Source of the DNA: Polyangia bacterium
GTDB taxonomy: Bacteria > Myxococcota_A > Polyangia > Fen-1088
Length of the DNA stretch: 64,000 nt
Direction: 5' to 3'
Assembly: GCA_036494575.1 (NCBI GenBank)
Contig: DASXOE010000020.1
Span: 4,638-68,637 of the forward strand
The notes beneath the pieces are model-generated. The model made no database searches. It was not told the origin of the DNA and saw only the letters and a list, made by a program, of their open reading frames with translations. The position numbers were made by a program, and so were the translations under genes. How positions within the stretch are numbered: the stretch's first letter is position 1; each line of letters opens with the position of its first letter. Positions 29,783 to 61,200 of this stretch are shown here, one piece after another.

Positions 29783-29783
29783 T

Positions 29784-33671: not shown

Positions 33672-33672
33672 C

Positions 33673-35007: not shown

Positions 35008-35016
35008 TTTGGTTCC

Positions 35017-36906: not shown

Positions 36907-36909
36907 GGC

Positions 36910-40018: not shown

Positions 40019-40042
40019 ACCCTTGGGCCCGTGGCACCGCCG

Positions 40043-40819: not shown

Positions 40820-40826
40820 CCGGGCC

Positions 40827-44190: not shown

Positions 44191-47100
44191 GTGATGAGCG
44201 TCGATCAACATAGGGTCCAGCAGGGTGCGACCGACGGACGGGCCGATGGGCCCGACGACGACGGCGACGATGCGCTGGTCGCCATCATCGGCATGGCGGG
44301 GCGCTTCCCGGGCGCGCCCGATCTCGAGCGGTTCTGGCGCAACCTCGCCGCCGGCGCCGAATCGATGCGGCACTTCACCGACGAGGAGCTCCTCGCGGCC
44401 GGCGAATCGCCGGCCGCGCTGCGTGATCCCGGGTACGTGCGCGTCTGTCCCGTGCTCGACGACATCGACAAGTTCGACGCCGGCTTCTTCGGCTTTTCGC
44501 CCAAGGAGGCGGCCATCAGCGATCCGCAGCACCGGCTCTTCCTCGAGATCGCGTGGGAGGCCTTCGAGAACGCCGGGTACGACCCGGGCCGCGCGCCGGG
44601 CGTCGTGGGCGTGTGGGCCGCCTGCGGCCTCAACGCCTATCTCATGCACCACCTCGTCACGAACCCGGACCTCATGGAGTCGGTGGGCGAGTGGCTGCTG
44701 CGTCACACGGCGAACGACATGAACTTCCTCGCGACGCGCGTCTCCTATGAGCTCGACCTGCGCGGCCCCAGCATGAACGTCCAGACCGCCTGCTCCTCGA
44801 CGCTCGTGACGCTGCACCTGGCCGTGCAGAGCCTGCTCGGGCGCGAGTGCGACCTAGCGCTCGCGGGCGGCTCGACGATCTCGCTGCCCCAGCGCGGCTA
44901 CATCTACAAGGAGGGCGAGATCCTCTCGGCCGACGGGCACTGCCGGCCGTTCGACGCGCGCTCGAAGGGCACGCTTTTCGGGAGCGGGGCCGGGGCCGTC
45001 GTTCTCAAGCGGCTCGCCGACGCGCGGCGCGACCGCGACAACGTCCTCGCGCTCGTGCGCGGCTCGGCCATCAACAACGACGGCTCGCAGAAGGTCGGCT
45101 ACCTGGCGCCCAGCGTCGAGGGTCAAGCGCGCGCCATCGCCGAGGCGCTCTCGGTCTCTGGCGTCGACGCCGGCACGATCTCGTACGTCGAGGCGCACGG
45201 CACGGGAACGCTCATCGGCGATCCGATCGAGGTGAGCGCCCTGACGCAGGCCTTTCGCGCGCACACGGATCGGCGCGGCTTCTGCGGCCTCGGCTCGCTC
45301 AAGTCGAACATCGGGCACCTCGGCGAGGCGGCCGGCGTCGGCGGGATCATCAAGACCGTCCTCGCGCTCGGACACGGCCAGATCCCGCCCAGCGCCGGCT
45401 ACGAGATCCCGAACCCCAACATCGACTTCGCGGCGAGCCCCTTCTACGTCTCGGATCGCCTGCGCGACTGGCCGCGCGGAGTGGGACCACGCCGCGCGGG
45501 CATCACGGCGCTGGGCGCCGGCGGCACGAACGCGCACGTCGTCCTCGAGGAGGCGCCCGCCGCGCCGCCTGGCGCGCCGGCGCGCGCATGGCAAGTGCTG
45601 CCGCTCTCGGCGCGGTCGCCGGCGGCGCTCGAGGCCGCGACCAAGCGGCTCGCCGCGCACCTCCGGGCGACGCCGGCGCTGCCGCTCGCCGACGCCGCGT
45701 TCACGCTGCAGGTCGGACGGCGCGCCTTCGAGCACCGCCGCGTCGCCGTGTGCCGCGACGGCGCCGACGCCATCGCCGTCCTCGAGGGGGCGGATCCGCG
45801 CCGGCTGCTCACGCAGGCGACGACGCGCAAGCAAGAAGCCGTCGAGGTGGTCTTCTCGTTCCCGGGCGCGGGCGCGCAGCACGCGGGCATGGGTCAGGAG
45901 CTGTACGAGACCGAGCCGCTCTTTCGCGCGGCGGTCGACGAGTGCCTCGAGCACGTGCGGCCCGAGCTCGGGATCGATCTGCGTCCCCTGCTCTACCCGG
46001 CCCGTGAACCCGGCGCGCGCGAAGCCGCGGACGCGCGCCTCGAGTCGCCGTCGCTCGCGCTGCCGGCGCTCTTCGCCACCGAGTACGCCCTCGTGAAGCT
46101 GCTGCGGTCGTGGGGGATCGCGCCCGCGGCCATGATCGGCCACAGCTTGGGCGAGTACGTCGCCGCCTGCGTGGCCGGCGTGTTCTCGAGCCGCGACGGC
46201 ATGCGCCTCGTCGCCAAGCGCGGGCTCCTCATCGAGACCCTCCCGCCTGGCGGCATGCTCGTCGTCCCTCTGCCGGCCGGGGAGCTCGCTCCGCTCTTGC
46301 CCGAGCTCGGGCTTTCGATCGCGGCCGTGAACACCCCCGAGCTGTGCGTGGCGTCGGGGCCCGTCGACGCCATCGCCGCGCTCGAGGCGACGCTCGCCGC
46401 GCGCGAGATCGACGCCCGCCGCCTGCACATCATCATGCCGGCGCACTCGACCATGCTCGACCCGATCCTCCCCGAGTTCGAGCGCTTCTGCCGGACGATC
46501 GCCTTCAGCGCGCCCACGCTGCCCTACCTGTCGAACCTGAGCGGCACGTGGATCACGGCGCGCGAGGCCTCCGATCCGCAGTACTGGGTGCGCCACCTGC
46601 GCCACACGGTGAGGTTCGCGGACGGCCTCGCGACGCTCATCGGACAGAAGAAATCGTGCTTGCTGCTCGAGGTCGGGCCGGGCCGGACGCTGACGAGCCT
46701 GGCGACGATGCAGCCCGCCAAGCCGGCGGGCGCCCTGCCAACGATGATTCATCCGAAGGAGACCGGCTCGGGCGTCGCGTTCCTGCTGGGGACGCTCGGC
46801 CAGCTCTGGCTCGCGGGCGCCGAGCTCGACTGGGAGAGGGGGCACGGGACGGCGGCGCGGCCGCGGCGCGTGCCGCTGCCCACGTACCCGTTCGAGCGGC
46901 AGCGCTACTGGATCGAGCGCGGGCAGGCGACGGCCGCCCGCGCGACCGCGCCGGGCGCGCTCAAGAAGGTCCCGGACCTCGCCGACTGGTTCTGGCTGCC
47001 GTCGTGGACGCGCACGGCGTCGCCGCCGGCGGCTGCTCCCCAGGGCGCGACCACGCTGCTCTTCGTCGAAGAGAGGGAGGAGAGCGCGGACGATGCCCGC

Positions 47101-49845
47101 GCGGACGAGCCCGGGTTGGGCGCGGCGCTCGCGGCGCGGATGCCGGGCTCTGTGACGGTGCGCGCCGGCGCGGGATTCGCGCGCACGCCCGACGGTGGCT
47201 TCACGGTGGCGCCGGGCCGACGCGCCGACTACGAGCAGCTCCTCGCCGCGCTGCGCGGCGACGGGAAGCTGCCCGACGAGGTGGTTCACCTCTGGTCGGT
47301 CGCGGGGCCGCGCCGCGCGACCGGCGACGCGCTCAGTGGCTACGAGCGCGCCTTCGAGCTCGGCTTTGCGAGCCTGCTCTGCCTCGCCCAGGCCCTCGCC
47401 CTCGAAGATCGGCCGGCGCGCTTGACGATCGTGTCGAGCGGGCTTCATCGCATCGGCGCCGAGACCGAGCGCGATCCCTTGAAGGCGCTGCTGCTCGGAC
47501 CGGCGCGCGTCATCGGCGCCGAGCTGCCCGCGATCGCGAGCCGCAGCGTCGACGTGTCGTGGCCCGTGGAGGCGCCCTGGCAGCGGCGGCGCGTCGTCGA
47601 GCAGGTGCTCGCCGAGCTCGGCGCGCCGCGCGCGGAGGATCCGGCGCGCGCGGAGAAGGTGATCGCGTACCGGGGCGCGGAGCGCCTCGTGCAGTCCTTC
47701 GAACGCGCGCCGCTGCCGGAGCGCGCCGAGGGGGCGCGCGGGTTTCGCGAAGGGGGCGTTTACCTCGTCACGGGCGGGCTGGGCGGCATCGGCGCCACGC
47801 TCGCGGAGCACCTGGCCCGCACGGCGCGCGCGAAGCTCGTGCTCGTGGGCCGGTCGGCGCGTCCCGAGCGCGAGCGCGCGCTGACGGATCTCGGCGCCGA
47901 CTTGCTCGTCGTGCAGGCGGACGTCACCGATCTCGGGCAGATGCGCGCCGCGATGAGCGCGGCGCGCGCGCGCTTCGGCCCCGTGACGGGCATCATTCAC
48001 GCCGCCGGCGTGCTCGAGGACGAGCTCATCCTGCTCAAGACCGTCGAGTCGGCGGCGCGCGTGATGGCGCCCAAGGTCAAGGGCGCGCTCGTGCTCGACG
48101 AGCTCGCGCGCGAGAGTGAAGTGCCGCCGGAGCTCTTCCTGCTGTTCTCGTCGGTGAGCGCCGTCCTCGGATTGCAGGGCCAGGTCGACTACACGGCGGC
48201 GAACGCCTTCCTCGACGCGCTCGCGCTCGAGCGCGCGGGCCGAACGCCCGAGACGAGCCTGGCCATCGACTGGGGCGCCTGGCGCGACGTCGGCATGGCC
48301 GCGACGATGGCCGCGCGCGGCCAGACGCGCGCGGGCACCGCGCCGGCCGCGAGCGGCGACTGGCTGGGCACGCGCCGGGCCGACGGCGCGTTCGAGCGCG
48401 CGCTCGGGGTCGACGACTGGTGGCTGCTCTCCGAGCACGTCGTCAAGGGGGGCGACGCTCTCATCCCCGGCACGGGCTTCCTCGAGCTCGCCCGCGAGGC
48501 GGCGACGCGCGCCCTGCCCGGCGCTGGGGCCCTCGAGCTCGATGACGTCGTCTTCCTGGCGCCCTTCGCGCTCGCGGGCGGGCAGCGCCGCCACCTGCGC
48601 GTCGCCGTGGGCGCCGACGGAGAGCTCGCCATCGACAGCGTCGCGGCGGACGGCGCGAGCGGGGAGGTTCGCCATGTTGCGGGGCACGCCGCGCGCGTCA
48701 CGGTGGCAGCGCCGGCGCCCGTGGATGTCGCGGCTCTGCGCGCCCGCTGCGCCGAGGCGCGCCCCGTGGGCGCGGGCGGCTTCCTGCCCCAGCGCTTCAT
48801 GAGCTTCGGCCCGCGCTGGGGCAACATCGTGGCCATCGGAGCGGGCGGCGGCGAGGCGCTCGTCGACCTCGAGCTCCCGGCCTCCTTCGCGGGCGATCTC
48901 ACGACGCACCTCCTGCACCCCGCGCTGCTCGACATGGCGACTGGCGCCGCGCAGGCGCTCATCCCCGGCTTCGACGCCGAGCGCGATTTCCACGTGCCGT
49001 TCTCTTACGGGCGCGTCCGCCTGCACGCGCCGCTGTCGCGGCGGCTCACGAGCCACGTGCGCTACCGCAAGGACAGCGCCAAGGACCTCCCCGCCTTCGA
49101 TGTCGTGCTCTTCGACGAGGGCGGCCGCGTGCTCGTCGAGATAGCGGGCTTCGTCATGAAGCGCGTCTCCGACCGGGGCGCGCTCGCAGGCGCCGCGGCG
49201 GGCGGGGCGGCGGAGCGCGCGGCGCCCGCCGGCGGCGCCGAGGCGTTGGCCACCGAGCTGCGCGAGGCCGCGTTTCGGGAGGGCATGCTGCCGGCCGAGG
49301 GCCTCGAGGCGCTCGAGCGCATCGTGTCCGCGCGGCTCGGCCCGGAGGTCATCGCGAGCTCGCTCGATCTGAACGAGTGGCTCGCCGCCACGGCGCGCGC
49401 CAACCACCCCACGGCGACGGCCGCCACCGACGCTTCAGCGAGCGCCGTGGCGCCGGCGGCGCGCCCGTCGGTCAGCACGACCTTCGAGGCGCCGCGCGGC
49501 GAGGAAGAGGAGCGCGTCGCCGGCCTGTGGCGCTCCATGCTGGGCGTCGAGCAGGTCGGGGTGCACGACAACTTCTTCGAGCTCGGCGGTCATTCGCTGC
49601 TGCTCACGCAGACGATCACGCGGCTGCGCAAGCTCGCGGGCGTCGACATCCCGCTCGGCGCCCTGCTGTCGAAGCTCACGATCGCCGAGATGGCCGCCGA
49701 GGTGGCGCGCGTGAAGGCCGCCGGCAAGAGCGCTGCGCCGCCGCCCATGCGCGCCGTTTCGCGCGACGCCTACCGGGCCAAGAGATCGGCCGTCGGCGAC
49801 GGTGGGCCTCGCCCCTCCCCGCCCGACGAATCGCAAGACGAGTGA
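44191..49845 (+). CDS. Type I polyketide synthase, single module KS-AT-(psiKR)-KR-DH-T
   Basis: 1884 aa. KS: TACSS (Cys codon 44791-44793), EAHGTGT, NIGHLGEAAG; roughly 44269-45555. AT: GHSLGE (Ser codon 44144+2000, i.e. 46144-46146); roughly 45847-46835; the specificity motif reads MPAHS, which is non-canonical. KR: TGGLGGIG (from 47770) and YTAAN (Tyr codon 48190-48192). DH after the KR: LSEHVVKGGDALIPGTG (His codon 48436-48438) and LHPALLDMATGAAQ. Carrier: FFELGGHSLL (Ser codon 49594-49596). Confidence 0.95.
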   Translation: MMSVDQHRVQQGATDGRADGPDDDGDDALVAIIGMAGRFPGAPDLERFWRNLAAGAESMRHFTDEELLAAGESPAALRDPGYVRVCPVLDDIDKFDAGFFGFSPKEAAISDPQHRLFLEIAWEAFENAGYDPGRAPGVVGVWAACGLNAYLMHHLVTNPDLMESVGEWLLRHTANDMNFLATRVSYELDLRGPSMNVQTACSSTLVTLHLAVQSLLGRECDLALAGGSTISLPQRGYIYKEGEILSADGHCRPFDARSKGTLFGSGAGAVVLKRLADARRDRDNVLALVRGSAINNDGSQKVGYLAPSVEGQARAIAEALSVSGVDAGTISYVEAHGTGTLIGDPIEVSALTQAFRAHTDRRGFCGLGSLKSNIGHLGEAAGVGGIIKTVLALGHGQIPPSAGYEIPNPNIDFAASPFYVSDRLRDWPRGVGPRRAGITALGAGGTNAHVVLEEAPAAPPGAPARAWQVLPLSARSPAALEAATKRLAAHLRATPALPLADAAFTLQVGRRAFEHRRVAVCRDGADAIAVLEGADPRRLLTQATTRKQEAVEVVFSFPGAGAQHAGMGQELYETEPLFRAAVDECLEHVRPELGIDLRPLLYPAREPGAREAADARLESPSLALPALFATEYALVKLLRSWGIAPAAMIGHSLGEYVAACVAGVFSSRDGMRLVAKRGLLIETLPPGGMLVVPLPAGELAPLLPELGLSIAAVNTPELCVASGPVDAIAALEATLAAREIDARRLHIIMPAHSTMLDPILPEFERFCRTIAFSAPTLPYLSNLSGTWITAREASDPQYWVRHLRHTVRFADGLATLIGQKKSCLLLEVGPGRTLTSLATMQPAKPAGALPTMIHPKETGSGVAFLLGTLGQLWLAGAELDWERGHGTAARPRRVPLPTYPFERQRYWIERGQATAARATAPGALKKVPDLADWFWLPSWTRTASPPAAAPQGATTLLFVEEREESADDARADEPGLGAALAARMPGSVTVRAGAGFARTPDGGFTVAPGRRADYEQLLAALRGDGKLPDEVVHLWSVAGPRRATGDALSGYERAFELGFASLLCLAQALALEDRPARLTIVSSGLHRIGAETERDPLKALLLGPARVIGAELPAIASRSVDVSWPVEAPWQRRRVVEQVLAELGAPRAEDPARAEKVIAYRGAERLVQSFERAPLPERAEGARGFREGGVYLVTGGLGGIGATLAEHLARTARAKLVLVGRSARPERERALTDLGADLLVVQADVTDLGQMRAAMSAARARFGPVTGIIHAAGVLEDELILLKTVESAARVMAPKVKGALVLDELARESEVPPELFLLFSSVSAVLGLQGQVDYTAANAFLDALALERAGRTPETSLAIDWGAWRDVGMAATMAARGQTRAGTAPAASGDWLGTRRADGAFERALGVDDWWLLSEHVVKGGDALIPGTGFLELAREAATRALPGAGALELDDVVFLAPFALAGGQRRHLRVAVGADGELAIDSVAADGASGEVRHVAGHAARVTVAAPAPVDVAALRARCAEARPVGAGGFLPQRFMSFGPRWGNIVAIGAGGGEALVDLELPASFAGDLTTHLLHPALLDMATGAAQALIPGFDAERDFHVPFSYGRVRLHAPLSRRLTSHVRYRKDSAKDLPAFDVVLFDEGGRVLVEIAGFVMKRVSDRGALAGAAAGGAAERAAPAGGAEALATELREAAFREGMLPAEGLEALERIVSARLGPEVIASSLDLNEWLAATARANHPTATAATDASASAVAPAARPSVSTTFEAPRGEEEERVAGLWRSMLGVEQVGVHDNFFELGGHSLLLTQTITRLRKLAGVDIPLGALLSKLTIAEMAAEVARVKAAGKSAAPPPMRAVSRDAYRAKRSAVGDGGPRPSPPDESQDE

Positions 49846-49864: not shown

Positions 49865-52800
49865 ATGACGTCAGATCGCGACGAAAGATATCCCCTCTCG
49901 CCGGTGCAGGCCGGGATGCTGTTCAATCGGCTGAGCGCGCCGGCGAGCGGCGTCGACATCGAGCAGATGATCGCGGGCCTGCCCGAGGAGGTGGACGCCG
50001 CCGCGCTCGAGCAGGCGTGGCGTCTGGTCGTCGAACGCCATGCCGTGCTGCGCACGTCCTTCTCCTGGGGCGGCCCCGGCGCGCCCGAGCAGCGGGTGGC
50101 GGCCGCCGTCGAGGTGCCCTTCGCCCTTCACGACTGGCGCGGCGTGCCGAGCGCCGAGCAGGACGAGCGGCTCGAGGCCTTCCTCGTCGACGATCGCCGC
50201 CGGGGCTTCGACCTCGCGCGCGCGCCCCTGCTGCGGTTCGCGCTGTTCCGACGCGGCGCCGACGACGCCCAACTCGTTTGGACGTTCTTCCACGGCGTCC
50301 TCGACGGCGGCTCGTTCGTCGCCATAGTCAACGAGGCCTTCGACGTCTACGAGGCGCTCCGGCGCGGCGAGAAGCCGAGCGCGCCCGCGCCCCTGCCCTA
50401 CCGCGCCCACATCGAGTGGCTCGAGGGCGAGCTCCGCGCCAAGGCGGAGGCGGCGCGCGCCTTTTGGCACGCGCGGCTCGAGGGCTTCGCGGCGCCCAAC
50501 GTGCTGACGGCGGCGGGCTCCGACGGGGCGGCGCCGCGCGGCCACGGCGAACGCGCGTTCCGGCTGTCGCACGGCGAGACCGCCCGCCTGAGGGCGTTCG
50601 GCGAGGCCGCCGGCCTCACGCTCAACACGTTCGTCCAGGGGGCGTGGGCGCTCGTCATCGCGGCGTCGACGGGCGAGGACGACGTGGTCTTCGGCGCGAC
50701 GCGCGCGTGCCGGCGCTCTTCGGTGCCGGGCGCCGAGGGTATGGCGGGCGTCTTCATCAACACGCTGCCGCTCCGCCTGGCCGTCGACGCGGCCGCCTCG
50801 GCCGGCGACTGGCTGCGCGTCGTCCGCGAGCGGCACCGCGAGGTGCGCGCCTTCGAGCACACGCCGCTCGCCGACGTGCTGGCCGCGAGCGACGTGCCGG
50901 GCGACCAGAGCCTGTTCGAGAGCATCATCGTCTTCAACGAGCGGCTCATGGAGGCCGTCATGCAGGCGCAGGGGGGTGCCTGGGCGCGCCGGACCTTCCG
51001 CTGGATCGAGCAGACGAACTTCCCCATCACGCTGTTCGGTTACGCGGAGGACGAGCTCTTGCTCAAGCTCTCGTACGATCGCGCGCGCCTCGACGACGAA
51101 GCAGCGACGCGCTTGACCGAGCGCCTCCGCGCCGTGCTCGCGGCGCTCGCGGCGAACCCCGAGGCGCGCATCGGCGACCTGCCGACGGTCGCGCCCGAAG
51201 AGCGCGCGCTCGTCGTCGAGCGCTGGAACGACACCCGGGTCGACGTACCGCGCGACCGGTGCGTGCACGAGCTCATCGAGGCGCAAGCAGCGGCGACACC
51301 CGACGCCGTGGCCGTCGTCTACCGCGACGCCCGCCTGACGTACCGCGAGCTCGACCAGCGCGCCGACGCCCTCGCGCGGACCTTGCAGGCGCGCGGCGTG
51401 GGACCCGACACGCTCGTGGGCTTGTTCGTCGACCGCTCGCTCGAGATGGTGGTCGGTCTCCTCGGCATCCTCAAGGCCGGCGGCGCCTACGTGCCGCTCG
51501 ATCCCGAGTACCCGACGGAGCGGCTCGCCATGATGCTCGAGGACTCGCAGGCGCGCGTCATCGTGACGAGGACCGCGCTGCGCTCGGCCCTGCCGCCGCG
51601 CGCGGACGCCGAGATCGTGACGGTCGAGCTCGCAGAAGCGTCCGCGCCCGCGGCCGGAGCCCCGACGCTCCACCGCGCCGTCGCGCCGCACAACCTCGCG
51701 TACGTGATCTTCACGTCGGGCTCAACGGGCAGGCCGAAGGGCGTGATGATCGAGCACCGCAACGTCATCAACTTCTTCGCGGGCATGGACGCGCGCATCG
51801 GCGCGGACCGCGGCGTGTGGCTCGCCGTCACGAGCATCTCCTTCGACATCTCGGTGCTCGAGCTCCTGTGGACGCTCGCGCGCGGCTTCGAGGTCGTCGT
51901 GCATGGCGACGGCGATCGCCGCGCCGCCGCCGAAGGGAGCGCGCGCTCCGAGCCGGGTGACGGGCGCGGGCGCATGGACTTCAGCCTCTTTTACTTCGCG
52001 AGCGCCGCTGGCGCCGCGGTCGGGCAGCGCTACCGGCTGCTGCTAGAGGGCACGAAGTTCGCCGACGCGCACGGCTTCTCGGCCGTGTGGACGCCCGAGC
52101 GACACTTCCACGAATTCGGCGGCATCTATCCCAACCCGTCGGTCACGGGCGCCGCGCTCGCCGTGCTGACACGCAACGTGCAGATCCGCGCGGGCTCGGT
52201 CGTGCTGCCGCTGCACAACCCCATCCGCGTCGCCGAGGAGTGGTCGGTCGTCGACAACCTGTCGGGCGGACGCGTGGGCCTGTCGTTCGCGTCGGGCTGG
52301 CACGCCAACGACTTCGCGCTCATGCCCGAGAGCTATGCCGACCGCAAGAACGTCATGATCCGCGGCATCGAGACCGTGCGGCGCCTGTGGCGCGGCGAAT
52401 CCGTCCCGGCGCGCAGCGGCACGGGCGCCGAGATCCAGGTGCGCGTCCTGCCGCGCGCCGTGCAGGCCGAGCCGCCGCTGTGGGTCACGGCCGCCGGCAG
52501 CCCCGACACGTTCAGGTTCGCGGGCGAGCTCGGCGCCAACGTCCTCACCAACATGCTGGGCCAGAGCGTGGCGGATCTCACCGCGAAGATCGCCGTCTAT
52601 CGCGAGGCGCGCCGAGCGCACGGCCACGCCGGCCCCGGGCAGGTCAGCCTCATGCTGCACACGTTCGTGGGCGTCGATCGCGACGAGGTGCGCGCCAAGG
52701 TGCGCGACCCCTTCATGGCCTACCTCGAGACCTCCACCGACCTCATCAAGAAGGCCAAGTGGGAGTTCCCCGCCTTCGCGCAGCCCGGGAAGGATCGGGC

Positions 52801-55594
52801 GGGCGCGCCCGCGGCCCCCGCCGCGCCGGGCGAGGTCGTCCTCACGCCCGAGGAGACGCAGGTCATGATGGCGCACGCCTTCGAGCGCTACTTCACGACG
52901 AGCGGCCTCTTCGGCACGCCGCAAAGCTGCCTCGCCATGGTCGACCGCCTGCGCGAGGCGGGCGTCGACGAGATCGCCTGCCTCATCGACTTCGGCGTGG
53001 CCGACGACGACGTCCTCGCGAGCCTCGTGCACCTCGACGATCTGCGCGCGCGGTGCAACAAGGAGAGCGCCGGGGCGATCGACGCGCCGGCCCCCGAGCA
53101 CGGCATCGCCGCCGAGCTGCGCCGGCATCGGGTCACGCACCTGCAGTGCACGCCCTCGATGGCGCGCATGCTGCTGAGCGAGCCCGAGACGCGCGCCGCC
53201 CTGCCCTCGCTGCGCAAGGTCCTGCTGGGCGGCGAGGCCTTGCCGGAGGCGCTCGCGGCCGAGCTCCTGACCGTGCTCGCGCCCGACGCCGAGCTGCACA
53301 ACATGTACGGCCCGACGGAGACGACGGTTTGGTCGACGACGGCGCGCGTGCGCGCGGGCGCGCCGCTCACGATCGGCCGCCCCATCGCCAACACGCGCGT
53401 CCTCATCCTCGATCGTGACGGCCGGCCCGCGCCCATCGGCGTCGCGGGCGAGCTCCACATCGGCGGCGCGGGCGTCGTGCGCGGCTACCTCGGCCGTGAG
53501 GACCTGACGCGCGAGCGCTTCGTCCCCGACGCGTACGCGCGTGACGCGGACGCGCGCCTCTACAAAACCGGGGATCTCGCGCGCTGGCGCGCCGACGGGG
53601 AGATCGAGTTCCTGGGCCGGCTAGACCACCAGGTGAAGCTCAGCGGGTACCGCATCGAGCTCGGCGAGATCGAGGCGGCGCTCGGGCGCCATCCGGCGGT
53701 CAAGAACAGCGTCGTCGTCGCGCGCGAGGACACGCCAGGCGACAAGCGCCTCGTCGCCTACGTCGTCCCGCGCGACACCGCGAGCTCGCCCGAGGCCGCA
53801 GGCGGGAACGACGCCGTCACGGGCTGGCAAGCCATTTGGAACGAGACCTACGCCGGCGGCGGCGCGCAAGCGCTCACGGCCGACGGAGACGGCCGGGCCG
53901 ACCTCGAAGCCAAGCTCGAAGACGACATCGTCGGCTGGCGCAGCAGCTACACGGGCGAGCTCATCCCGGTCGCCGAGATGCGGGAGTGGCTCGAGCACAC
54001 GGTGGCGCGCATCATGGCGCTGTCGCCGCGGCACGTGCTCGAGATCGGGTGCGGCACGGGCATGATCTTGTCGCGCGTCGCGCCCTCGTGCGCGCGCTAC
54101 GTGGGGCTCGACTTCTCGCCCGCCGTGCTGACGCGCCTGCGCGCGCGCTTGGAGCGGCGCCCCCTGCCCCAGGTCGAGCTGCGCCAGGCGGCGGCACACG
54201 AGCTCGCCGCCATCCAGCCGGCGGGCTTCGACGTCGTCGTGCTGAACTCCGTCGCGCAGTACTTCCCCGACGTTCGCTACCTCATGAACGTGCTGCGGCT
54301 GGCGCTGGACGCACTCGCCCCGGGAGGCGCCGTGTTCGTGGGCGACGTGCGCAGCCTGCCGCTCTTCGAGGCGTTCGCGACGTCCGTCGAGCTCGCGCAG
54401 GCGCCCGACGCGCTCGACGTGGGCGAGCTCGCGACGCGCATCGAACGGCGGCGCCGCCACGACGGCGAGCTCGTGATCGATCCGGAGCTCTTCCACGCGC
54501 TCCGCTCCGAGCTACCCGACCTCGCCGCCGTCGACGTCCAGCTCAAGCGCGGGCTCCACGCCAACGAGATGAGCCGCTTCCGCTACGACGTCGTGCTGCG
54601 CAAGCGCGGCGCCGTCGCCGTGCGCGACGAGGCCGCGGCGGCGGCCGCCTCTCGCGCCTCCGACGTCGCGGCGCCCGTGTCCGCGCAGACCTTCGCCGAG
54701 CTCGAGCGGCTCCTGGCCCAGGCCCCGGCCAACCTCGAGGTGCGCGACGTGCCGAACGCGCGCGTCGCGCGCGAGCTCGACGCGCTGGCGCGGCTCGCGC
54801 AGAAGCCCCGTCCCGCCACCGTCGCCGACCTGCGCGCGCGCCTCGACGGGGGCGGAGCCGCCGGCGTAGAGCCCGAGGCGCTGTGGACGCTGGCGCCGGA
54901 CTACGACGTCGCCATCACCTGGTCGGCCAGCGGACCGCGGGCCTTCGACGCGCGCTTCCGGCGGCGCGACGCCGGCCCGCTGGCTCCGGTGGCGCCCGCC
55001 GACGGCGCGCCCCGCGCCCTGGCCAGGCCCTGGGAGAGCTACGCGCGCGGCCCCGAGCGGCGCGCGAGCGGCGGCGGCGAGCTCGTGTCGGACCTGCGCG
55101 CGCGGCTCAAGCAGACCTTGCCCCCCTACATGATTCCGAGCGCGTTCGTCGTACTCGACGCGCTGCCGCTCACGGCCAATGGGAAGGTCAACCGCAAGGC
55201 GCTCCCCGCGCCCGATCGCGATCGTCACGAGGCTGCCGCCGCCTACGTCGCGCCCGCGAGCGAGCTCGAGCGCATCATCACGGAGGTCTGGCAGGCGCTG
55301 CTCGGGCTCGGCCAGGTGAGCACGCAGGACAATCTTTTCGATCTGGGCGCGAACTCGCTCCTCATGGTGCAGGCCAACGGCCGCCTCAAGACGGCGCTCG
55401 GGCGCGATCTCTCGCTCGTCGAGATGTTCCGCTTCCCCAGCATCGCCACGCTCGCGGCCCACCTGGCCGCCGCGGGGACGGGCGACGGCGCCAAGGCCGA
55501 CGGGCGCTCGGAGGCGGCCGATCGCGGGCAAGACCGCGGCCAGCAGCGCCGCGATGCCTTGTTGCGCCGTCGCCCGCCGCGCGAGCGCTCCTGA
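49865..55594 (+). CDS. NRPS module C-A-T with a doubly interrupted, glycine-type adenylation domain (A[LLM/MOx][MT])
   Basis: 1909 aa from the ATG at 49865, 19 nt after the PKS stop. C: YPLSPVQAGMLF, FFHGVLDGGS (His codon 50291-50293). A: LAYVIFTSGSTGRPKG, SFDISVLE, NMYGPTETT, YKTGDLARW, GRLDHQVKLSGYRIELGEIE, LPPYMIPS, NGKVNRK. T: LFDLGANSLLM (Ser codon 55355-55357). No TE or R domain. Confidence 0.95.
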   Translation: MTSDRDERYPLSPVQAGMLFNRLSAPASGVDIEQMIAGLPEEVDAAALEQAWRLVVERHAVLRTSFSWGGPGAPEQRVAAAVEVPFALHDWRGVPSAEQDERLEAFLVDDRRRGFDLARAPLLRFALFRRGADDAQLVWTFFHGVLDGGSFVAIVNEAFDVYEALRRGEKPSAPAPLPYRAHIEWLEGELRAKAEAARAFWHARLEGFAAPNVLTAAGSDGAAPRGHGERAFRLSHGETARLRAFGEAAGLTLNTFVQGAWALVIAASTGEDDVVFGATRACRRSSVPGAEGMAGVFINTLPLRLAVDAAASAGDWLRVVRERHREVRAFEHTPLADVLAASDVPGDQSLFESIIVFNERLMEAVMQAQGGAWARRTFRWIEQTNFPITLFGYAEDELLLKLSYDRARLDDEAATRLTERLRAVLAALAANPEARIGDLPTVAPEERALVVERWNDTRVDVPRDRCVHELIEAQAAATPDAVAVVYRDARLTYRELDQRADALARTLQARGVGPDTLVGLFVDRSLEMVVGLLGILKAGGAYVPLDPEYPTERLAMMLEDSQARVIVTRTALRSALPPRADAEIVTVELAEASAPAAGAPTLHRAVAPHNLAYVIFTSGSTGRPKGVMIEHRNVINFFAGMDARIGADRGVWLAVTSISFDISVLELLWTLARGFEVVVHGDGDRRAAAEGSARSEPGDGRGRMDFSLFYFASAAGAAVGQRYRLLLEGTKFADAHGFSAVWTPERHFHEFGGIYPNPSVTGAALAVLTRNVQIRAGSVVLPLHNPIRVAEEWSVVDNLSGGRVGLSFASGWHANDFALMPESYADRKNVMIRGIETVRRLWRGESVPARSGTGAEIQVRVLPRAVQAEPPLWVTAAGSPDTFRFAGELGANVLTNMLGQSVADLTAKIAVYREARRAHGHAGPGQVSLMLHTFVGVDRDEVRAKVRDPFMAYLETSTDLIKKAKWEFPAFAQPGKDRAGAPAAPAAPGEVVLTPEETQVMMAHAFERYFTTSGLFGTPQSCLAMVDRLREAGVDEIACLIDFGVADDDVLASLVHLDDLRARCNKESAGAIDAPAPEHGIAAELRRHRVTHLQCTPSMARMLLSEPETRAALPSLRKVLLGGEALPEALAAELLTVLAPDAELHNMYGPTETTVWSTTARVRAGAPLTIGRPIANTRVLILDRDGRPAPIGVAGELHIGGAGVVRGYLGREDLTRERFVPDAYARDADARLYKTGDLARWRADGEIEFLGRLDHQVKLSGYRIELGEIEAALGRHPAVKNSVVVAREDTPGDKRLVAYVVPRDTASSPEAAGGNDAVTGWQAIWNETYAGGGAQALTADGDGRADLEAKLEDDIVGWRSSYTGELIPVAEMREWLEHTVARIMALSPRHVLEIGCGTGMILSRVAPSCARYVGLDFSPAVLTRLRARLERRPLPQVELRQAAAHELAAIQPAGFDVVVLNSVAQYFPDVRYLMNVLRLALDALAPGGAVFVGDVRSLPLFEAFATSVELAQAPDALDVGELATRIERRRRHDGELVIDPELFHALRSELPDLAAVDVQLKRGLHANEMSRFRYDVVLRKRGAVAVRDEAAAAAASRASDVAAPVSAQTFAELERLLAQAPANLEVRDVPNARVARELDALARLAQKPRPATVADLRARLDGGGAAGVEPEALWTLAPDYDVAITWSASGPRAFDARFRRRDAGPLAPVAPADGAPRALARPWESYARGPERRASGGGELVSDLRARLKQTLPPYMIPSAFVVLDALPLTANGKVNRKALPAPDRDRHEAAAAYVAPASELERIITEVWQALLGLGQVSTQDNLFDLGANSLLMVQANGRLKTALGRDLSLVEMFRFPSIATLAAHLAAAGTGDGAKADGRSEAADRGQDRGQQRRDALLRRRPPRERS
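51917..53128 (+). other. Luciferase-like monooxygenase (MOx) domain inserted between A-domain cores A4 and A5
   Basis: The insert contains MDFSLFYFAS.., ..FSAVWTPERHFHEFGGIYPNPSV.., ..LPLHNPIRVAEEWSVVDNLSGGRVGLSFASGWH.. and ..PPLWVTAAGSPDTFRFAGELGANVLT.. Borders were set by alignment with the uninterrupted paralogous A domain at 58202-61537 and are accurate to about +/-30 nt. Confidence 0.8.
53777..55093 (+). other. SAM-dependent methyltransferase domain inserted between A-domain cores A8 and A9
   Basis: SAM motif I HVLEIGCGTGMIL; post-I GLDFS; motif II/III region FDVVVLNSVAQYFPD..LAPGGAVFVGD. Flanked by ..KRLVAYVVPRD and LRARLKQTLPPYMIPS. Borders were set by the paralogue alignment. Confidence 0.75.
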
Positions 55595-55625: not shown

Positions 55626-56525
55626 TCAGGGCGCGCCTGGCCCGAGGCCCGTCAGCTTCTCGCTGACATCCCACAGCCGCGCCGCGACAGCGGCGTCGAG
55701 CGAGCGCGGCGACGAGCGCGCCTCGGCTGAATCGCGGAAGTAGCGGCCGCTCACGCCCTCGAGCGTCGGCGAGGCCGCGACGAACAGGCTCGTCGCGGCG
55801 CCCTCCTTCGGCCCGGGCCTCCCCCGGCGCGTCAGGAAGCGCAGCGGGGCGGGCCGGCCCTCGAAGGCCACGAGCAGGTTCGTGCCGATGACGCCCGGGT
55901 GCAGGCAGTTCGCCGTCACGCCAGTGCCCGCGAGACGCCGCGCGAGCTCGAACGTGAACAGCATGTTGGCGTGCTTCGATTGATAGTAGGCGTCGAGGCG
56001 CTCGTAGGGCCTTTTCTCCCTCCCGAGATCGTCGAAGTCGAGGACGGCCATGCCCTCGACCTGCGAGGCGACGTTGACGATCCGCGCAGGCGCGCTCGCC
56101 TTCAAGGCGTCGAGCAAGAGGTTCGTCAGCAAGAACGGGGCGAGGTGATTGACGGCGAGCTGAGTCTCGAGTCCGTCGACGGTCGTCGAGCGCTTCGGCG
56201 TGATCACGGCCGCGTTGTTGACGAGCACGTGCAGGTGGTCGTGGCGGGCGCGGACCTCGGCGGCGAGCCGGCGCACCTCCGCCTGCGACGACAGGTCGGC
56301 CACGAGGAGCTCGACGTCGCGGCGCCCCGTGCGCCGCCCGATCTCCGAGACGGCGTCGCGGCCGCGCGCCGCATCGCGCCCGGCCACGATCACCGTGGCG
56401 CCACGCTCGGCGAGGCCGAGCGCCGTCTCGCGCCCGATGCCGCTCGTGGCGCCCGTGACGAGGCAGATCCGTCCCGCCATCGAGGGCGCGGAAGCCGGGG
56501 CGCCCCCGGGAGAAGCGCCGCTCAT
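55626..56525 (-). CDS. Short-chain dehydrogenase/reductase (retinol-dehydrogenase/WWOX-like classical SDR)
   Basis: 300 aa from the ATG at 56525, which overlaps the upstream stop (ATGA). Contains ICLVTGATSGIGRETA, NNAAV, NVASQ and YYQSKHAN (YxxxK). Confidence 0.85.
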   Translation of the reverse strand: MSGASPGGAPASAPSMAGRICLVTGATSGIGRETALGLAERGATVIVAGRDAARGRDAVSEIGRRTGRRDVELLVADLSSQAEVRRLAAEVRARHDHLHVLVNNAAVITPKRSTTVDGLETQLAVNHLAPFLLTNLLLDALKASAPARIVNVASQVEGMAVLDFDDLGREKRPYERLDAYYQSKHANMLFTFELARRLAGTGVTANCLHPGVIGTNLLVAFEGRPAPLRFLTRRGRPGPKEGAATSLFVAASPTLEGVSGRYFRDSAEARSSPRSLDAAVAARLWDVSEKLTGLGPGAP

Positions 56526-57403
56526 GGCGCCGCCCGCGCGACGCGCGCCCCGCCAGCGACCAGCGTCGCGCGCGCCCAGGCGTCGATGGACGCGAAAAGC
56601 GCGTCTTGCTGGCTCCGCAGCGTGAGGGTGTGATCCGCGATGTTCATGAACTCGACTCGAACGCGCGGATGACCGCGCAGCGCCGGGAAGGTGTCGCCGA
56701 ACTGTCCCGCGTAATTGTAGAACTCCGTCATACCGCCTCCCGTGAACACGAAGAAGAGCTCGGCGTCGCGCGCCAAGATTGCTTTCAGCTCCGCGAGGCA
56801 GATTTCCCGCGGCGGGAACTCGCGCACGAAGCCCACGCCTCCGGGGTTGTCGCCCGCAGGCGCCCCGCCAGCCTGCGCGCCGGCACGGGCCTTCCACCAG
56901 GAGAGCGGGCTCGCGGCGACGCGGCGCCAGCTGCGCGCGCTCAGCAGGTGGCGTCCGTACTGGCGGACGTAGTAGCCGTTCGTGCGATAGGCGGCGCCGT
57001 CGATGAGCACGGCGCCCACGACGCGCGCGTCCTCGTGCGCGAGACGCTGCGCGTTCTCCGCGCCCGCGCACAGGCCCATGGGAACGAACCGGTCGGCGAT
57101 CCCAGACGCCGCGAGAAAGTCCATGGCCTCGATCCCCTCGGCGAGCATGCTCTGCTCGAGGCTCAGCTCGTCGCGGCGCGGCTCGCTCTCGCCAAGCCCC
57201 GAGTAATCGAAGCGCAACACGGGCAGGCCGGCCGCCGCCAGCTGGCGCGCGAGCGTCACGTAGAAACGGTTGGGACCGACGCGGTGAAGCAGCCCCGCGT
57301 TGAGCAGAAGGACGGCGGGCCGCCCCGCGGCGCCGCCCGCTGGCTCGGTGAGAATGCCCGACAGCGACTTGGCGGCGCCGAAGGTGACGGGACGCTCCTT
57401 CAC
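56522..57403 (-). CDS. Alpha/beta-fold hydrolase with Cys at the nucleophile elbow (G-L-C-A-G); resembles exosortase-A-system hydrolase 1
   Basis: 293 aa from the GTG at 57403 (GTGA overlap with the upstream stop). Contains PVLRFDYSGLGESE, FVPMGLCAGAENA and a His candidate in NIADHTL. Confidence 0.75.
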   Translation of the reverse strand: MKERPVTFGAAKSLSGILTEPAGGAAGRPAVLLLNAGLLHRVGPNRFYVTLARQLAAAGLPVLRFDYSGLGESEPRRDELSLEQSMLAEGIEAMDFLAASGIADRFVPMGLCAGAENAQRLAHEDARVVGAVLIDGAAYRTNGYYVRQYGRHLLSARSWRRVAASPLSWWKARAGAQAGGAPAGDNPGGVGFVREFPPREICLAELKAILARDAELFFVFTGGGMTEFYNYAGQFGDTFPALRGHPRVRVEFMNIADHTLTLRSQQDALFASIDAWARATLVAGGARVARAAP

Positions 57404-58197
57404 GACTCGCTCCTCGACAGCCACGCGGCGATGAGGTCCTGCGTCTGGCGCGCGCCCGCCGTGCCCTCGACGCGGTGTTGCTTCCACACCTCGGCCTCGG
57501 CGAGCACCTCGTGATCGACGCGCGCGCCCCGCGCCGCGAGCCTGGCGTCCAGGCGGTCCGCTCCTTCGAGCGCGGCGCGCTCGATGATGAGGGCCCGCGG
57601 CGCCGTGCGCGGCAGGTGGGCGAGGTCGACGGCGGCGATCGAGCGCCGCATCGCCTCGGTCACGCGGAACCCCAGGATCTCGTCGCCGCCGTCGGAGACC
57701 TGCGCGGGCGGAAGGCGGCGCCAGGTGGCGTAGGAGTCCCGCCAGGCGCGTTGAGCCGCGAAGCCCGCCTCGAGGTACTTCGCCCCCTCTGCGACCGGTT
57801 CCCAGAGCACGAGGCGGCCGACGTCCTCGCGCCGCGCGGCCGCGAGCGCGGCGAGCGTCGCGCCGAAACGAAGCCCGAGCAGCGTGACGTGCGCGACGCC
57901 CTTGCCGCGCTTGGCCTCCTCGACGGCCGCGGCGACGTCACCGAGCCACACGTCGACGTCGCCGTGCTCGGTGGCGCCGGCCGAGTCGCCCGCCCCCGAG
58001 TAGTCGAACCTCAGCACGGAGAAGCCGTCCTTGGCGAGACGCACGGCCAGCTGGCGCAACACCCGGTGCGCGCGGATGGCCTCTTGCCACAGCGGCGCGC
58101 ACACGACGAGCGCGCGCGACGTGGCCGCGGCCCGCGGCGGCTCGTGCCAGACCCCGAACAGCGAGCGCGCTGGTTCGCCGAAGTAGAAAGCCGGCAC
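57400..58197 (-). CDS. Alpha/beta-fold hydrolase-like protein with Arg at the nucleophile position (G-L-R-F-G); resembles exosortase-A-system hydrolase 2
   Basis: 265 aa. The GTG start lies 4 nt after the NRPS stop. Contains SVLRFDYSGAGDSAG and HVTLLGLRFGATLAALAA. Confidence 0.7.
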   Translation of the reverse strand: MPAFYFGEPARSLFGVWHEPPRAAATSRALVVCAPLWQEAIRAHRVLRQLAVRLAKDGFSVLRFDYSGAGDSAGATEHGDVDVWLGDVAAAVEEAKRGKGVAHVTLLGLRFGATLAALAAARREDVGRLVLWEPVAEGAKYLEAGFAAQRAWRDSYATWRRLPPAQVSDGGDEILGFRVTEAMRRSIAAVDLAHLPRTAPRALIIERAALEGADRLDARLAARGARVDHEVLAEAEVWKQHRVEGTAGARQTQDLIAAWLSRSES

Positions 58198-58201: not shown

Positions 58202-61200
58202 TCACTCCTTCGAGATCATGCGCTTGAGCGCTCCGAAGACCCCGCGCGCCTTGGGCGCATCGAGGCCGCGCGCCTGATCGCACTTGGCGGCGACCTGGGC
58301 GAGGTTCTGGAGAATGAGCTCGGCGACGCTGAGGCGCTTTTTCAACCGCTGCTCGATGTGGTGCACGACCTGCGTCGACAGCAGCGAGTGCCCGCCCAAA
58401 TCGAAGAAGTTGTCGTAGATCGACACGCGCGGCACCCCCAGCACCTGCTGCCAGATCTCGGCGATGGCCTGCTCGGTCGGCGTGCGCGGGGCCACGAAGC
58501 TGTCGACGACGCCGTCGACCGCGCCGGCTCCGGCGCCGCCTTGGACGGCGGCGGCCTGCGGCGCCGGCAGCGCCTTGCGATCGACCTTGCCGTTCGGCGT
58601 CAGCGGCAGCCGCTCGAGCGTGACGAAGGCGCTCGGGACCATCGGCTCCGGGAGCCGCTCGCGCAACATCCGGCGCAGGTCGGCGGCCGCGGGCACGGCG
58701 CCCGCGAGGTACGCGACGAGGCGCTGGTCGCCCGCCTGGCCTGATTCACCGGGCCGCGCGACGACGACCGCCTCCCGAGCGCCCGACACCTCGCGCAAGA
58801 CGAGCTCGACCTCGCCGAGCTCGACGCGGTGGCCGCGGATCTTGACCTGGTGATCGAGGCGCCCGAGGAACTCGACGCGGCCGTCGCCGAGATAGCGGCA
58901 GAGATCGCCCGTGCGGTAGAGCCGGCCCGCTCCGAACGGGTTCTCCACGAACCGCTCGGCCGTGAGCTCCGGACGCCCCAGGTATCCGCGCGCGACGCCC
59001 GCGCCCCCGATGTACAGCTCCCCCGGGACCCCGATGGGCACCGGCTCGCGGTGGGCGTCGAGAATGTAGAGCGACGTGTTGGCGAGGGGCCGGCCGATCG
59101 GGATGGGTTGCGAGACGCCGCGCGACAGCGCGTCTCGATCGACCCGGAACGTCGTCGAATAGATCGTCGTCTCCGTCGGGCCGTACCCGTTGAAGAGGTC
59201 GCCCCCGAACGCTGCCAGCAGGTCGCGCGCGAGCGCGGGCGGCAGCGCCTCGCCGCCCAGAATCATGACCTCGAGCCCGCCGAGCGCCGCGCGGGCGGTG
59301 GCGTCGGCGACGAGCAGGCCCGCCATCGACGGCGTGCACTGAAAATGCGTCACGCCGTGGGCCGACACGGCGGCCGCGAAGGCGCGGGCCTTGTCGTCCT
59401 CCTCCGCCTGCACGATCACGGTGAAGCCGCGCGTGACCGTCCACAAGAGCTCGAGCACCGAGATGTCGAACGAGAGGCTCGTCACAGCGAGCCAGACGCC
59501 GGGCTTCTTGTGATCTGGCTTCGCGTGATCTGGCTTCGCGTGATCTGGCTTCGCGCCGAGCGCGGCGTCCATGCCGGCGAACAGGTTCGAGGCCTGGCGG
59601 TGCTCGAGCATCACGCCCTTGGGAGTGCCCGTCGAGCCGGACGTGTAGATGACGTAGGCGAGATTGTCGGGCCGCGCGCTCGCCTTCGCGTCGCCGTCGT
59701 CGTCCAACCGGCCATCGTCGCGGTGGCGCGCGATGGCGCTCGCCTCGGCGTCGAGGCAGAGGGCGCGCGCCGCGCCGAGCGGCAGCTCGGCCCCGATCGA
59801 GGAGACCGTCACGACGACGCCGACGCGCGAGTCGCCGATCATCTGCGCGAGCCGCGCCTTGGGGTAGGCGGGATCGAGCGGGAGGTACGCGCCGCCCGCC
59901 TTGAGGACCGCGAGGACGGCGACGACGATGTCCGGGCCGCGCGGCAGGCACACCCCGACGAGCCCGTCCGGCCCGACGCCGAGCTCGCGCAAGTGCCGCG
60001 CGAGGCGATTGGCGCGACGCTCGAGCTCGTCGTAGGTCAGCGCGTCTTCTCCCGTGCGCACGGCGACTTGCCCCGGCGTGCGCGCGGCCTGCCGCTCGAA
60101 TTCGGCGTGAATGCAGCTCGGCGTCGTGGCCGTCGCCGTCTCGTTCCACTCCGTGAGCACCCGCCGGCGCTCCGCGTCCGTGATCACGGGGAGCCGCGAG
60201 AGCCGCTCGTCGGGATGCGCGACCCCGGCCGCGATGACGTGGGCGAAGTTGGCGATGAAGCGCGAGATCGTCTCCCCGTCGTAGAGGTCGGAGCTGTACG
60301 TGAAGTAGCCCACGAGACCGTCGCGGGCCTCCTCGAGCTGCGCGAGGAGGTCGAACATCGAGTCGCCGTGGGGCGCGTCGACGGACGTCACCGTCACGCC
60401 AGGCAGCGTGAGCGCCGTGTCCGGCGCCACGAGGTAGCCGATCATGATCTGGAAGAACGGGTTGTGGCTGGCGTCGCGCGCGGGGCGCAGCACCTCGACG
60501 ATCTTCTCGAACGGCACGTCTTCGTGGGCCGCCGCGCCCGCGATGACCTCGCGCGCGCGCCCGAGCAGCTCGCGAAACGTGGGATCGCCCGCCAGGCTCA
60601 CGCGCAGCACGACCGTCGCGGCGTAAAAACCGACCGACTCCTCGATCTCGGTGCGTCCGCGGTTGCCGAAGGGCGACCCGACGAGAACGTCGTCCTGTCC
60701 GGTGTAGCGCTGGAGGAGCAGCGCGAACGCCGCGAGCAACCCGGAGAACGAGGTGGTCTTCTCCTGGCGGCACAGCGCCGCGAGCGCCGCGGCGCCCTCG
60801 CGCGTCGCGAGGTGCGCGCGCAGCCGGTGGCCGCGTCCGCTCGGCGTCGCCGGCCGCGGCCGATCGGACGGCAGCTCGGCCGATGGCAGCTCGCCGCTCA
60901 GCCGCTCGCGCCAATAGCTCACGAGGCGCTCGAGCTCCGGGCCCTGCAGCAATTCCTTTTGCCACAGCGCATAGTCGGCGTACTGGATCGCGACATTGGG
61001 CAGCGGCGAAGGCCGGCCGGCCGCGAAGGCCGCGTAGAGAGCCGACAGCTCGTTGAAGATGATCGAGATCGCGATGCCGTCGACGACGATGTGGCTCGCG
61101 TTGACGAGGAACACGTGGTCGTCCGCGCCGAGGCGCACGAGCCGGGCCCGCACGAGCGGACCCACCTTGAGATCGAACGGCGCCGACGCCGCCTCGGCGA

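Follow-up and report, generated by a model that had tools for sequence, protein, structure and literature searches.

The closest described counterparts of the gene analyzed here are MtaG and MelG of myxothiazol and melithiazol biosynthesis, nonribosomal peptide synthetase (NRPS) modules of the order C-A(MOx)-T-TE (condensation, adenylation, thiolation and thioesterase domains) in which a luciferase-like monooxygenase (LLM) of the TIGR04020 type, also termed MOx, is embedded in a glycine-type A domain between core motifs A4 and A5. The alpha-hydroxylation carried out by MtaG/MelG has been described (PMC11342130, PMC11411415), as have other assembly-line LLMs (PMC8739492). We analyzed a 64-kb stretch of Polyangia bacterium DNA (contig DASXOE010000020.1, ~70% G+C), hereafter the window, in which a gene at 49865-55594 on the + strand encodes a C-A-T module whose A domain is interrupted twice, by a MOx at the A4/A5 site and by an N-methyltransferase (nMT) at the A8/A9 site. 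Compared by description, the window module and MtaG/MelG likewise have a Gly-type A domain, a near-identical specificity code and a TIGR04020-type LLM at the same site, and by analogy the expected chemistry, alpha-hydroxylation of tethered glycine, would be alike. Unlike MtaG/MelG, the window module has a second insert (the nMT), no TE and a starter/DCL-like C domain and, in contrast to their end-of-line position, its comparative context puts it upstream of a polyketide synthase (PKS).

The second site is also the one used in family 1 of the interrupted A domains (A8-Mb-A9; TioS A4-M4, 5WMM), which has in common with the window A domain the insertion site, six type-I motifs and an alignment along the full length of the insert. 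Unlike family 1, the window A domain carries an extra, unrelated catalytic insert 600 residues upstream and belongs to a glycine-type, most likely initiating, module. The available catalogue of interrupted A domains contains M-domain inserts only, and its sole di-interrupted family (family 7) combines M(a2-a3) with M(a6-a7) (PMC8341866). Family 7 therefore shares with the window A domain the presence of two separate interruption sites; where family 7 has two M domains, the window A domain has a MOx (a4-a5) and an M domain (a8-a9), a pairing absent from PMC8341866. The same nMT plus MOx pair within a Gly A domain is encountered in 38 crz-like clusters of Serratia and Pseudomonas, in which a MOx is added in the nMT-bearing Gly A2 domain; these clusters are uncharacterised and were read by analogy to MtaG (Dreckmann et al. 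2024, PMC11342130). The crz-like NRPSs are bimodular (Ser-Gly), have a dehydrating C domain and a split A domain and end in a thioreductase, the domain with both inserts lying in module two, whereas the window NRPS is a stand-alone C-A-T without a TD domain, partnered with a KS-AT-KR-DH-ACP module (ketosynthase, acyltransferase, ketoreductase, dehydratase and acyl carrier protein) and with a C-A-T neighbour. Beyond that bioinformatic report (PMC11342130), we found in the literature no characterised MOx+nMT module, no N-methyl terminal amide and no formyltransferase (F)-A(MOx)-PKS cassette, and the megapolipeptin and palmerolide papers describe MOx/LLM domains in other contexts alone. Each insert is already known singly; their pairing marks a widespread NRPS-PKS cassette, which is itself the more interesting finding.

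The NRPS gene is an unbroken open reading frame (ORF) running from the ATG at 49865 to the stop at 55594, and the nearest named relatives of its product are proteins from metagenome-assembled genomes (MAGs) of Polyangia (P0013, 75% identity; P0014, 69%). It is made up of the following parts:

49865..55594, + strand: NRPS gene C-A(LLM)(nMT)-T, 1909 aa (ORF, translation, Pfam, NCBIfam)
49883..51208, + strand: condensation domain (Pfam, aa 7-448)
51227..51922, + strand: N-terminal part of the A-core, motifs A1-A4 including A3 FTSGSTGRPKG and A4 SFDISVLE (Pfam AMP-binding, aa 472-686)
51923..53125, + strand: insert 1, flavin mononucleotide (FMN)-dependent luciferase-like monooxygenase (MOx) with linkers, A4/A5 site (TIGR04020, 6KET)
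53126..53764, + strand: C-terminal part of the A-core and start of the A-sub, THLQCTPS and A5-A8 (paralogue alignment, motif conservation)
53765..55078, + strand: insert 2, predicted type-I backbone N-methyltransferase, A8/A9 site (alignment with TioS 5WMM, six type-I motifs)
55079..55591, + strand: rest of the A-sub (A9 LPPYMIPS, A10 NGKVNRK), T domain and basic tail (Pfam PP-binding, aa 1805-1867; LGANSL)

Pfam detects AMP-binding in two stretches and AMP-binding_C likewise split, and in the translation the motifs follow each other in the order A3, SFDISVLE, THLQCTPS, NMYGPTETT, A8, VLEIGCGTG, LPPYMIPS and NGKVNRK. The borders of both inserts were determined by BLASTP against the uninterrupted paralogue at 58202-61537 (-). 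The alignment first breaks at query residue 686 (paralogue 716) and restarts at 1088 (paralogue 727), which places insert 1 at about aa 687-1087 (nt 51923-53125); it continues at 55% identity over query aa 1088-1300, breaks again at 1300 (paralogue 944) and restarts near query 1738, which places insert 2 at about aa 1301-1738 (nt 53765-55078). According to Pfam, no TE follows the T domain in the NRPS protein, the distance from the T domain to the end of the ORF being 42 residues. Chance is excluded by the E-values given below together with the retention of the whole architecture in ~100 protein clusters. Pfam, NCBIfam and BLASTP thus bear out the C-A-T order with inserts at A4/A5 and A8/A9 proposed in the initial annotation of this DNA, whose insert borders (51917-53128 and 53777-55093) agree with ours to within a few codons, whose quoted A-domain motifs were all recovered in the order claimed, and whose T domain without a following TE is also what Pfam reports.

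Insert 1 lies between SFDISVLE and THLQCTPS/NMYGPTETT and is a luciferase-like monooxygenase, as had been annotated: it matches TIGR04020 (the MupA/Atu3671 'natural product' LLM) over the full model (positions 1-341 of 341; aa 706-1061) with 495-500 bits, well above the NCBIfam cutoff of 244.45, and Pfam Bac_luciferase over aa 704-1036 (E 3e-44). Its closest solved structure is the MOx domain of the puwainaphycin synthetase PuwE (6KET, E 7e-110), which reportedly acts on the alpha-carbon of a carrier-bound thioester. Among 37 aligned homologues (48-82% identity), the motif WTPERHFHxFGG and many other positions of insert 1 are invariant; the position of LuxA His44 is occupied by Arg, in an Arg-His arrangement that is common to 6KET and invariant in all 37. 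The LLMs OnnC, CalD and MndB act on carrier-bound thioesters at the alpha-carbon as well (PMC8739492). Unlike insert 1, these three and PuwE lie outside A domains, and their substrates are polyketide or fatty-acyl intermediates.

Insert 2 extends between GRLDHQVKLSGYRIELGEIE and LPPYMIPS, with junctions as in 5WMM, and, taken with the flanking A8 and A9/A10 regions, its whole length can be aligned to the interrupted TioS A domain (5WMM, E 1e-65). The Pfam models Methyltransf_12/25/11 for class-I methyltransferases match aa 1391-1491. All six type-I motifs are present (GWRSSY, VLEIGCGTG, RYVGLDFS, DVVVLNSVAQYFPDVRYL, DGELVIDPELF and NEMSRFRY) and kept in the 37 homologues; they make up the motif set of type-I backbone N-methyltransferases listed in Table 1 of Lundy et al. 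2020 (PMC8341866), and none of the type II/III (O-methylating) motifs of the same study is found in insert 2. The S-adenosylmethionine (SAM) motif VLEIGCGTG noted earlier is accordingly intact and conserved in the homologues, and the earlier view of a classical N-methylating A8/A9 insert finds support in the TioS alignment and the six motifs, which point to a type-I enzyme.

The ten specificity residues, derived by hand from motif anchors, read DILQLGMVWK. The same code had been given before, and its glycine type is borne out by a near-match to a published signature: four MOX-bearing Gly domains share the code DILQLGMIWK (PMC12283262), from which the window code differs by one residue. All 37 homologues conform to DILQ(L/V)G(M/L)(V/I)WK, and 10 of the 37 carry DILQLGMIWK itself. 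The A3, A5, A7, A8, A10, SAM and LLM motifs, the C-domain His and the T-domain Ser vary little or not at all at 48-82% overall identity, indicating that both inserts are under selection; nothing in the domain motifs suggests decay. The T-domain serine motif was also tried as a predictor of the downstream partner and gave no discrimination across the family.

The double insertion is not confined to this window. Among the 120 best protein clusters, 100 show the same Pfam content at 98-100% coverage, with lengths of 1821-1930 aa and identities of 48-80%, and the clusters with this architecture span at least 10 phyla (named sources include Polyangia, Myxococcales, Acidobacteriota, Chloroflexota and Bradyrhizobium). 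The initial annotation had regarded the combination as unusual; we found no characterised example in the literature, but with these 100 clusters and the 38 crz-like clusters the architecture is not singular. A genome scan with one genome per species yielded more than 593 LLM-interrupted A domains, and 84 loci were surveyed, comprising the best 80 of these matches and four context loci (referred to below by L numbers). LLM and MT occur in one A domain at 23 of the 84 loci, the sources being Polyangiaceae, Pedosphaera, Hyphomicrobium, an actinomycete MAG, Gemmatimonadaceae, Poribacteria, Pyrinomonadaceae, Bradyrhizobium and two Streptomyces strains. In a neighbor-joining tree built on the LLM-plus-A-core region, MT-bearing domains with F and with C N-termini fall essentially into one clade, L007, L022 and the Streptomyces pair lying outside it, which indicates that domains with both inserts form an established lineage whose N-cap domain was exchanged. 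Taken together, these sequence comparisons indicate that the di-interrupted A domain is the standard architecture of a large, widespread and uncharacterised NRPS-PKS family. In the two Streptomyces strains (sp. NPDC012637, L040; S. aureus NRRL B-2808, L049), A(LLM)(MT) forms part of the second module of C-A-T-C-A(LLM)(MT)-T, on a separate branch of the tree.

For the order of modules, the window proteins were cut into domains and mapped by tblastn on all 84 loci. The recurrent unit is [F / starter-like C / LCL C]-A(Gly, LLM, with or without MT)-T, followed by KS-AT-KR-DH-carrier and then by a TE, a hydrolase or a C-A-T. A KS comes straight after the T domain at 25 of the 84 loci, a homologous PKS is divergent or adjacent at ~10 more, and at five loci the PKS comes after a second T domain; a C domain is next after the T at 9/84, and the T-TE arrangement of the MtaG type is encountered at two (L044, L060). 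Full-length homologues of the window PKS (44-80% identity) adjoin nearly every di-interrupted NRPS, and eight PKS partners of di-interrupted NRPSs have a TE as judged by tblastn, its position at the PKS end being confirmed by Pfam in L001 and L017. Six loci (L001 from Bradyrhizobium sp. STM 3557, at about 5.41-5.44 Mb of CP120697.1, L002, L005, L006, L008 and L009) have just two assembly-line genes, C-A(LLM)(MT)-T and KS-AT-(KR-DH)-ACP-TE. With the PKS terminated by a TE, the NRPS must be the first module in such loci and its C domain a starter. At L014, Pfam finds an N-terminal formyltransferase domain in an F-A(LLM)(MT)-T protein, a domain organization that cannot take an upstream chain, and in the F-type sisters L014, L017 and L063 the homologous PKS lies 130-180 bp downstream. 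L062 and L070 are colinear on one strand in the order F-A(LLM)-T, PKS, C-A-T, with 48-49% identity to the window PKS and 43-45% to the window C-A-T; in L070, homologues of the hydrolase and of the SDR (short-chain dehydrogenase/reductase) are encoded as well. The TE-less PKS partners (window, L003, L004) are exactly those accompanied by a C-A-T plus hydrolase. These comparisons suggest that the window module is most likely first and feeds the PKS, a position that would also account for its missing TE. A different use of the pair is encountered in Acidobacteriota MAGs (L032, L038, L039, L041), where long multi-module NRPSs close with ...C-A(Gly, LLM)-T and a KS-AT-KR-DH-T comes next, so that the LLM-Gly and PKS pair also serves as the terminal unit of large peptides.

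The condensation domain and the protein termini are consistent with a first position. In the C domain, every family member keeps the catalytic residues His143 and Asp147 (xHxxxDG motif), and the best PDB matches are McyB, PvdL (chain 559-1009), the BacC/SrfA-C/TycB group and a 461-aa surfactin synthetase C domain (8F7F), with E-values from 1e-79 to 1e-49, compared with weaker values of 1e-19 to 1e-25 for the Txo1/Txo2/TycC group; the domain therefore appears DCL/starter-like. The C domains of PvdL and 8F7F are, we assume, acyl-accepting starter domains, although the PDB output does not name them so. By contrast, the C domain of the C-A-T at 58202-61537 best matches Txo1/Txo2, of the LCL type. 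At its C-terminus the NRPS ends in a basic tail, QQRRDALLRRR, within 55466-55591 (+), which takes the form (Q/E)xRAQxR(R/K)DAMxRRR in 35 of 37 homologues; NRPSs with a KS directly after have this tail too. The N-terminus of the PKS is short and acidic (DGPDDDGDD, within 44191-44310, +), as are the PKS N-termini of relatives, and, judged from sequence, the basic tail and the acidic N-terminus may form a docking pair.

Based on the domain identities, insertion sites, conserved catalytic motifs and the pairing and order kept in relatives, we consider it somewhat better than an even chance that the gene is the initiation module of a three-module NRPS-PKS-NRPS line yielding an N-acyl-N-methyl-alpha-hydroxyglycyl starter; in the scheme below we infer what each insert acts on, in which sequence the reactions take place on the T domain, how the modules of this window are ordered and what happens to the hemiaminal. 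The A domain would activate glycine and load it onto its own T domain, where the A8-A9 type-I N-methyltransferase would convert glycyl-S-T to sarcosyl-S-T, methylation at the aminoacyl-S-T stage being the established order for this class of enzymes. The starter/DCL-type C domain would then cap the nitrogen with an acyl group from outside the cluster, a role taken in the sister proteins by the formyltransferase, and the A4-A5 FMN-dependent LLM would hydroxylate the alpha-carbon of the tethered thioester. The resulting N-acyl-N-methyl-alpha-hydroxyglycyl thioester would be passed to the KS of the PKS at 44191-49845, extended by one malonate and processed by the KR and DH to a gamma-(N-acyl-N-methylamino)-gamma-hydroxy-enoyl thioester. 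The C-A-T at 58202-61537 would condense this enoyl chain with a second small (Gly-like) amino acid, and the paired alpha/beta hydrolases would release the product. The hemiaminal might be retained, act as the nucleophile of a ring closure (lactonisation) or collapse late to an aldehyde. N-formylglycine-derived oxazole starters are known from oxazolomycin and conglobatin. In palmerolide, glycine is likewise followed by PKS extension (PMC8739492). These N-capped Gly loading modules follow the same logic of cap, Gly-S-T and KS; in contrast to the window module they have no LLM and usually no nMT, and their products are oxazoles or enamides, so that alpha-hydroxylation, compared with these routes, would give a different, more oxidised unit. 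An earlier idea of ours, that N-methylation stabilises the hemiaminal, was withdrawn, as carbinolamide chemistry points the opposite way.

Several observations weigh against this scheme. In the window, where 20 bp separate the two genes, and likewise in L003 and L004, the NRPS gene comes right after the PKS gene, and the order in L004 (C-A-T, hydrolase, PKS, NRPS) is colinear with a line in which the NRPS comes last and anti-colinear with one that it initiates. No acyl donor for a starter C domain (fatty acyl-AMP ligase, ACP or coenzyme A (CoA) ligase) was found nearby in the window, and the subtype of the C domain was assigned by best PDB matches. To our knowledge, there is no precedent for an assembly line that carries an alpha-hydroxylated N-acyl-sarcosyl thioester, and N-methyl carbinolamides are more labile, so that the intermediate might collapse before transfer. 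The di-interrupted family as a whole is, moreover, known from sequence alone. The gene order and the colinearity of L004 keep alive for this window the reading favored by the initial annotation, namely that the module works last, like MtaG/MelG: the PKS product would be condensed onto sarcosyl-S-T, hydroxylated by the MOx and released as a terminal N-methyl amide by collapse of the carbinolamide, and a trans-acting hydrolase would clear the glyoxylyl-S-T. This reading can also draw on the (near-)identity of the Gly code to those of MOX-Gly domains, on the precedent of the MtaG/MelG mechanism (PMC11411415, PMC11342130) and on the presence of free-standing hydrolases, with which release needs no TE. 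It nevertheless appears improbable to us and is poorly supported by the relatives, since homologues begin with a formyltransferase or stand alone with a TE-terminated PKS, the PKS lies downstream, T-TE follows an LLM-Gly module at 2/84 loci only, and L062 and L070 put the orthologous C-A-T after the PKS. Moreover, the C domain of the NRPS is starter/DCL-like, yet that of the C-A-T, which would then have to come first, is LCL-like, and the NRPS carries a conserved docking-like C-terminal tail. A terminal role would therefore demand a role swap of the orthologous C domain, T domain and PKS within one clade.

If the module does initiate the line, as we prefer, the N-cap and N-methyl group could still be a temporary leaving group: after PKS extension, or once the product is released, collapse of the carbinolamide would expel N-methylformamide or an N-methyl acylamide and unmask a 4-oxo-2-enoyl (fumaraldehydic) electrophile, which the SDR may process. 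The interchangeable N-cap (formyl or acyl) in one clade with a conserved downstream PKS, the SDR accompanying loci of the C-A-T type and the accepted collapse of alpha-hydroxyglycine amides in MtaG chemistry are compatible with such a masked aldehyde. Being pure inference, it strikes us as unlikely, all the more as genuine lipopeptide families also vary in their acyl group and as spending SAM and formyltetrahydrofolate on a leaving group would be costly. Methylation of the new alpha-hydroxyl by the A8-A9 MT, yielding alpha-methoxyglycine as a stable, pederin-type N,O-acetal, would be a chemically appealing way to stabilise the hemiaminal and would fit the co-inheritance of MT and LLM in one clade as well as the LLM hydroxylases proposed for the onnamide cluster (OnnC, as cited in PMC8739492). 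We consider it very unlikely, given that insert 2 has every type-I backbone N-MT motif and no type II/III O-MT motif, that its alignment with the N-methylating TioS domain covers the whole insert, and that many LLM-Gly modules do without any MT. Finally, one or both inserts could be inactive relics in a module adding plain glycine or sarcosine. Nothing specific speaks for this beyond the Arg that replaces LuxA His44 in the LLM, an arrangement common to PuwE 6KET and invariant in the 37 homologues, and with SAM-binding and all other MT motifs kept at 48-82% overall identity, loss of function is an extremely improbable explanation.

More broadly, we tentatively propose, at somewhat less than an even chance, that the A-embedded MOx is not primarily a release device; across this family of at least ten phyla, its task in minimal NRPS-PKS lines would be to make N-capped alpha-hydroxy-(N-methyl)glycine as the starter for a dedicated KS-AT-KR-DH module, which would define a new class of small N-acyl-hemiaminals or masked 4-oxo-enoates, with the cassette here wired into an XrtA/PEP-CTERM exopolysaccharide locus beside paired 'exosortase-associated' hydrolases. 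Since the MtaG device mostly lies upstream of a PKS, it becomes questionable to annotate any MOx-glycine module by default as a source of terminal amides, and this comparative result outweighs the double insert itself in importance. Interrupted A domains are models for packing several activities into one NRPS domain, and a natural, conserved A domain that tolerates two unrelated inserts (a4-a5 and a8-a9) widens the design rules for such domains. The analysis also defines a compact two- or three-gene cassette, whose carriers include cultivable Bradyrhizobium and Streptomyces and whose product could be obtained by heterologous expression.

The neighbouring genes referred to above are the following:

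43275..44087, + strand: Sfp-type 4'-phosphopantetheinyl transferase (Pfam ACPS, AASDHPPT_N; kept in L003)
44191..49845, + strand: partner PKS, KS-AT-KR-DH-carrier, without TE (Pfam; homologues beside nearly every di-interrupted NRPS)
55626..~56510, - strand: SDR-family oxidoreductase (Pfam adh_short; NF004846, 227 bits)
56522..57487, - strand: second alpha/beta hydrolase, hydr1_PEP-like, start codon uncertain (TIGR03100, 79 bits, below cutoff; weak Pfam Hydrolase_4)
57400..58197, - strand: alpha/beta hydrolase, hydr2_PEP-like, candidate release enzyme (Pfam Hydrolase_4; TIGR03101, 100 bits, below cutoff)
58202..61537, - strand: uninterrupted C-A-T with LCL-type C domain and Gly-like code DILQLGGIYK, putative third module (Pfam, PDB, orthologues in L062/L070)

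The PKS has intact Cys/His/His motifs in its KS, and its AT shows GHSLGE, with MPAH instead of the usual HAFH/YASH; its KR has LED at the position of the B-type LDD, the reading of the KR LED/LDD and AT GHSLGE motifs being general PKS knowledge. The DH best matches GphF DH1 and other PKS DH domains, and the carrier has a PCP-like GGHSL. The linear order KS-AT-KR-DH-carrier is unusual. An iterative or enediyne-like PKS, considered because of the KR-before-DH order, was dropped, as KR and DH match domains of ordinary modular and trans-AT PKSs.

For the C-A-T, the hand-derived code DILQLGGIYK is Gly-like but atypical (M322G, W331Y), and partial codes extracted by regular expression from the orthologues in L003, L062 and L070 are Gly-like as well (DILQ..MIW). 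The protein also carries a tandem peptide, KPDHA-KPDHA-KPDHK, in the A3/A4 interval. The two hydrolases beside it best match 'exosortase A system-associated' hydrolases 2 and 1, at scores below cutoff. Homologues of the hydr2-like protein occur after the PKS in L023, L031 and L059 and alongside the C-A-T in L003, L004 and L070, and the counterpart of the hydr1-like protein is a separate 305-aa gene in L003. In canonical XrtA loci these hydrolases are paired with an acyl-CoA ligase and an ACP, a part which the C-A-T may take here. The SDR homologues in L003, L070 and L059 match the C-terminal ~285 aa alone of the listed 481-aa ORF (55626-57071, -), which is probably over-extended, its N-terminal part overlapping the hydr1-like gene in another frame.

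The NRPS/PKS genes adjoin an XrtA/PEP-CTERM-type exopolysaccharide locus (25786-43216, both strands), which contains an XrtA chain-length determinant (TIGR03007, 248 bits, just under the cutoff) and an XrtA-associated tyrosine autokinase together with glycosyltransferases, a flippase, a PgaB-like deacetylase and two TIGR03108-like amidotransferases. A matching XrtA-type neighborhood is present in L003.

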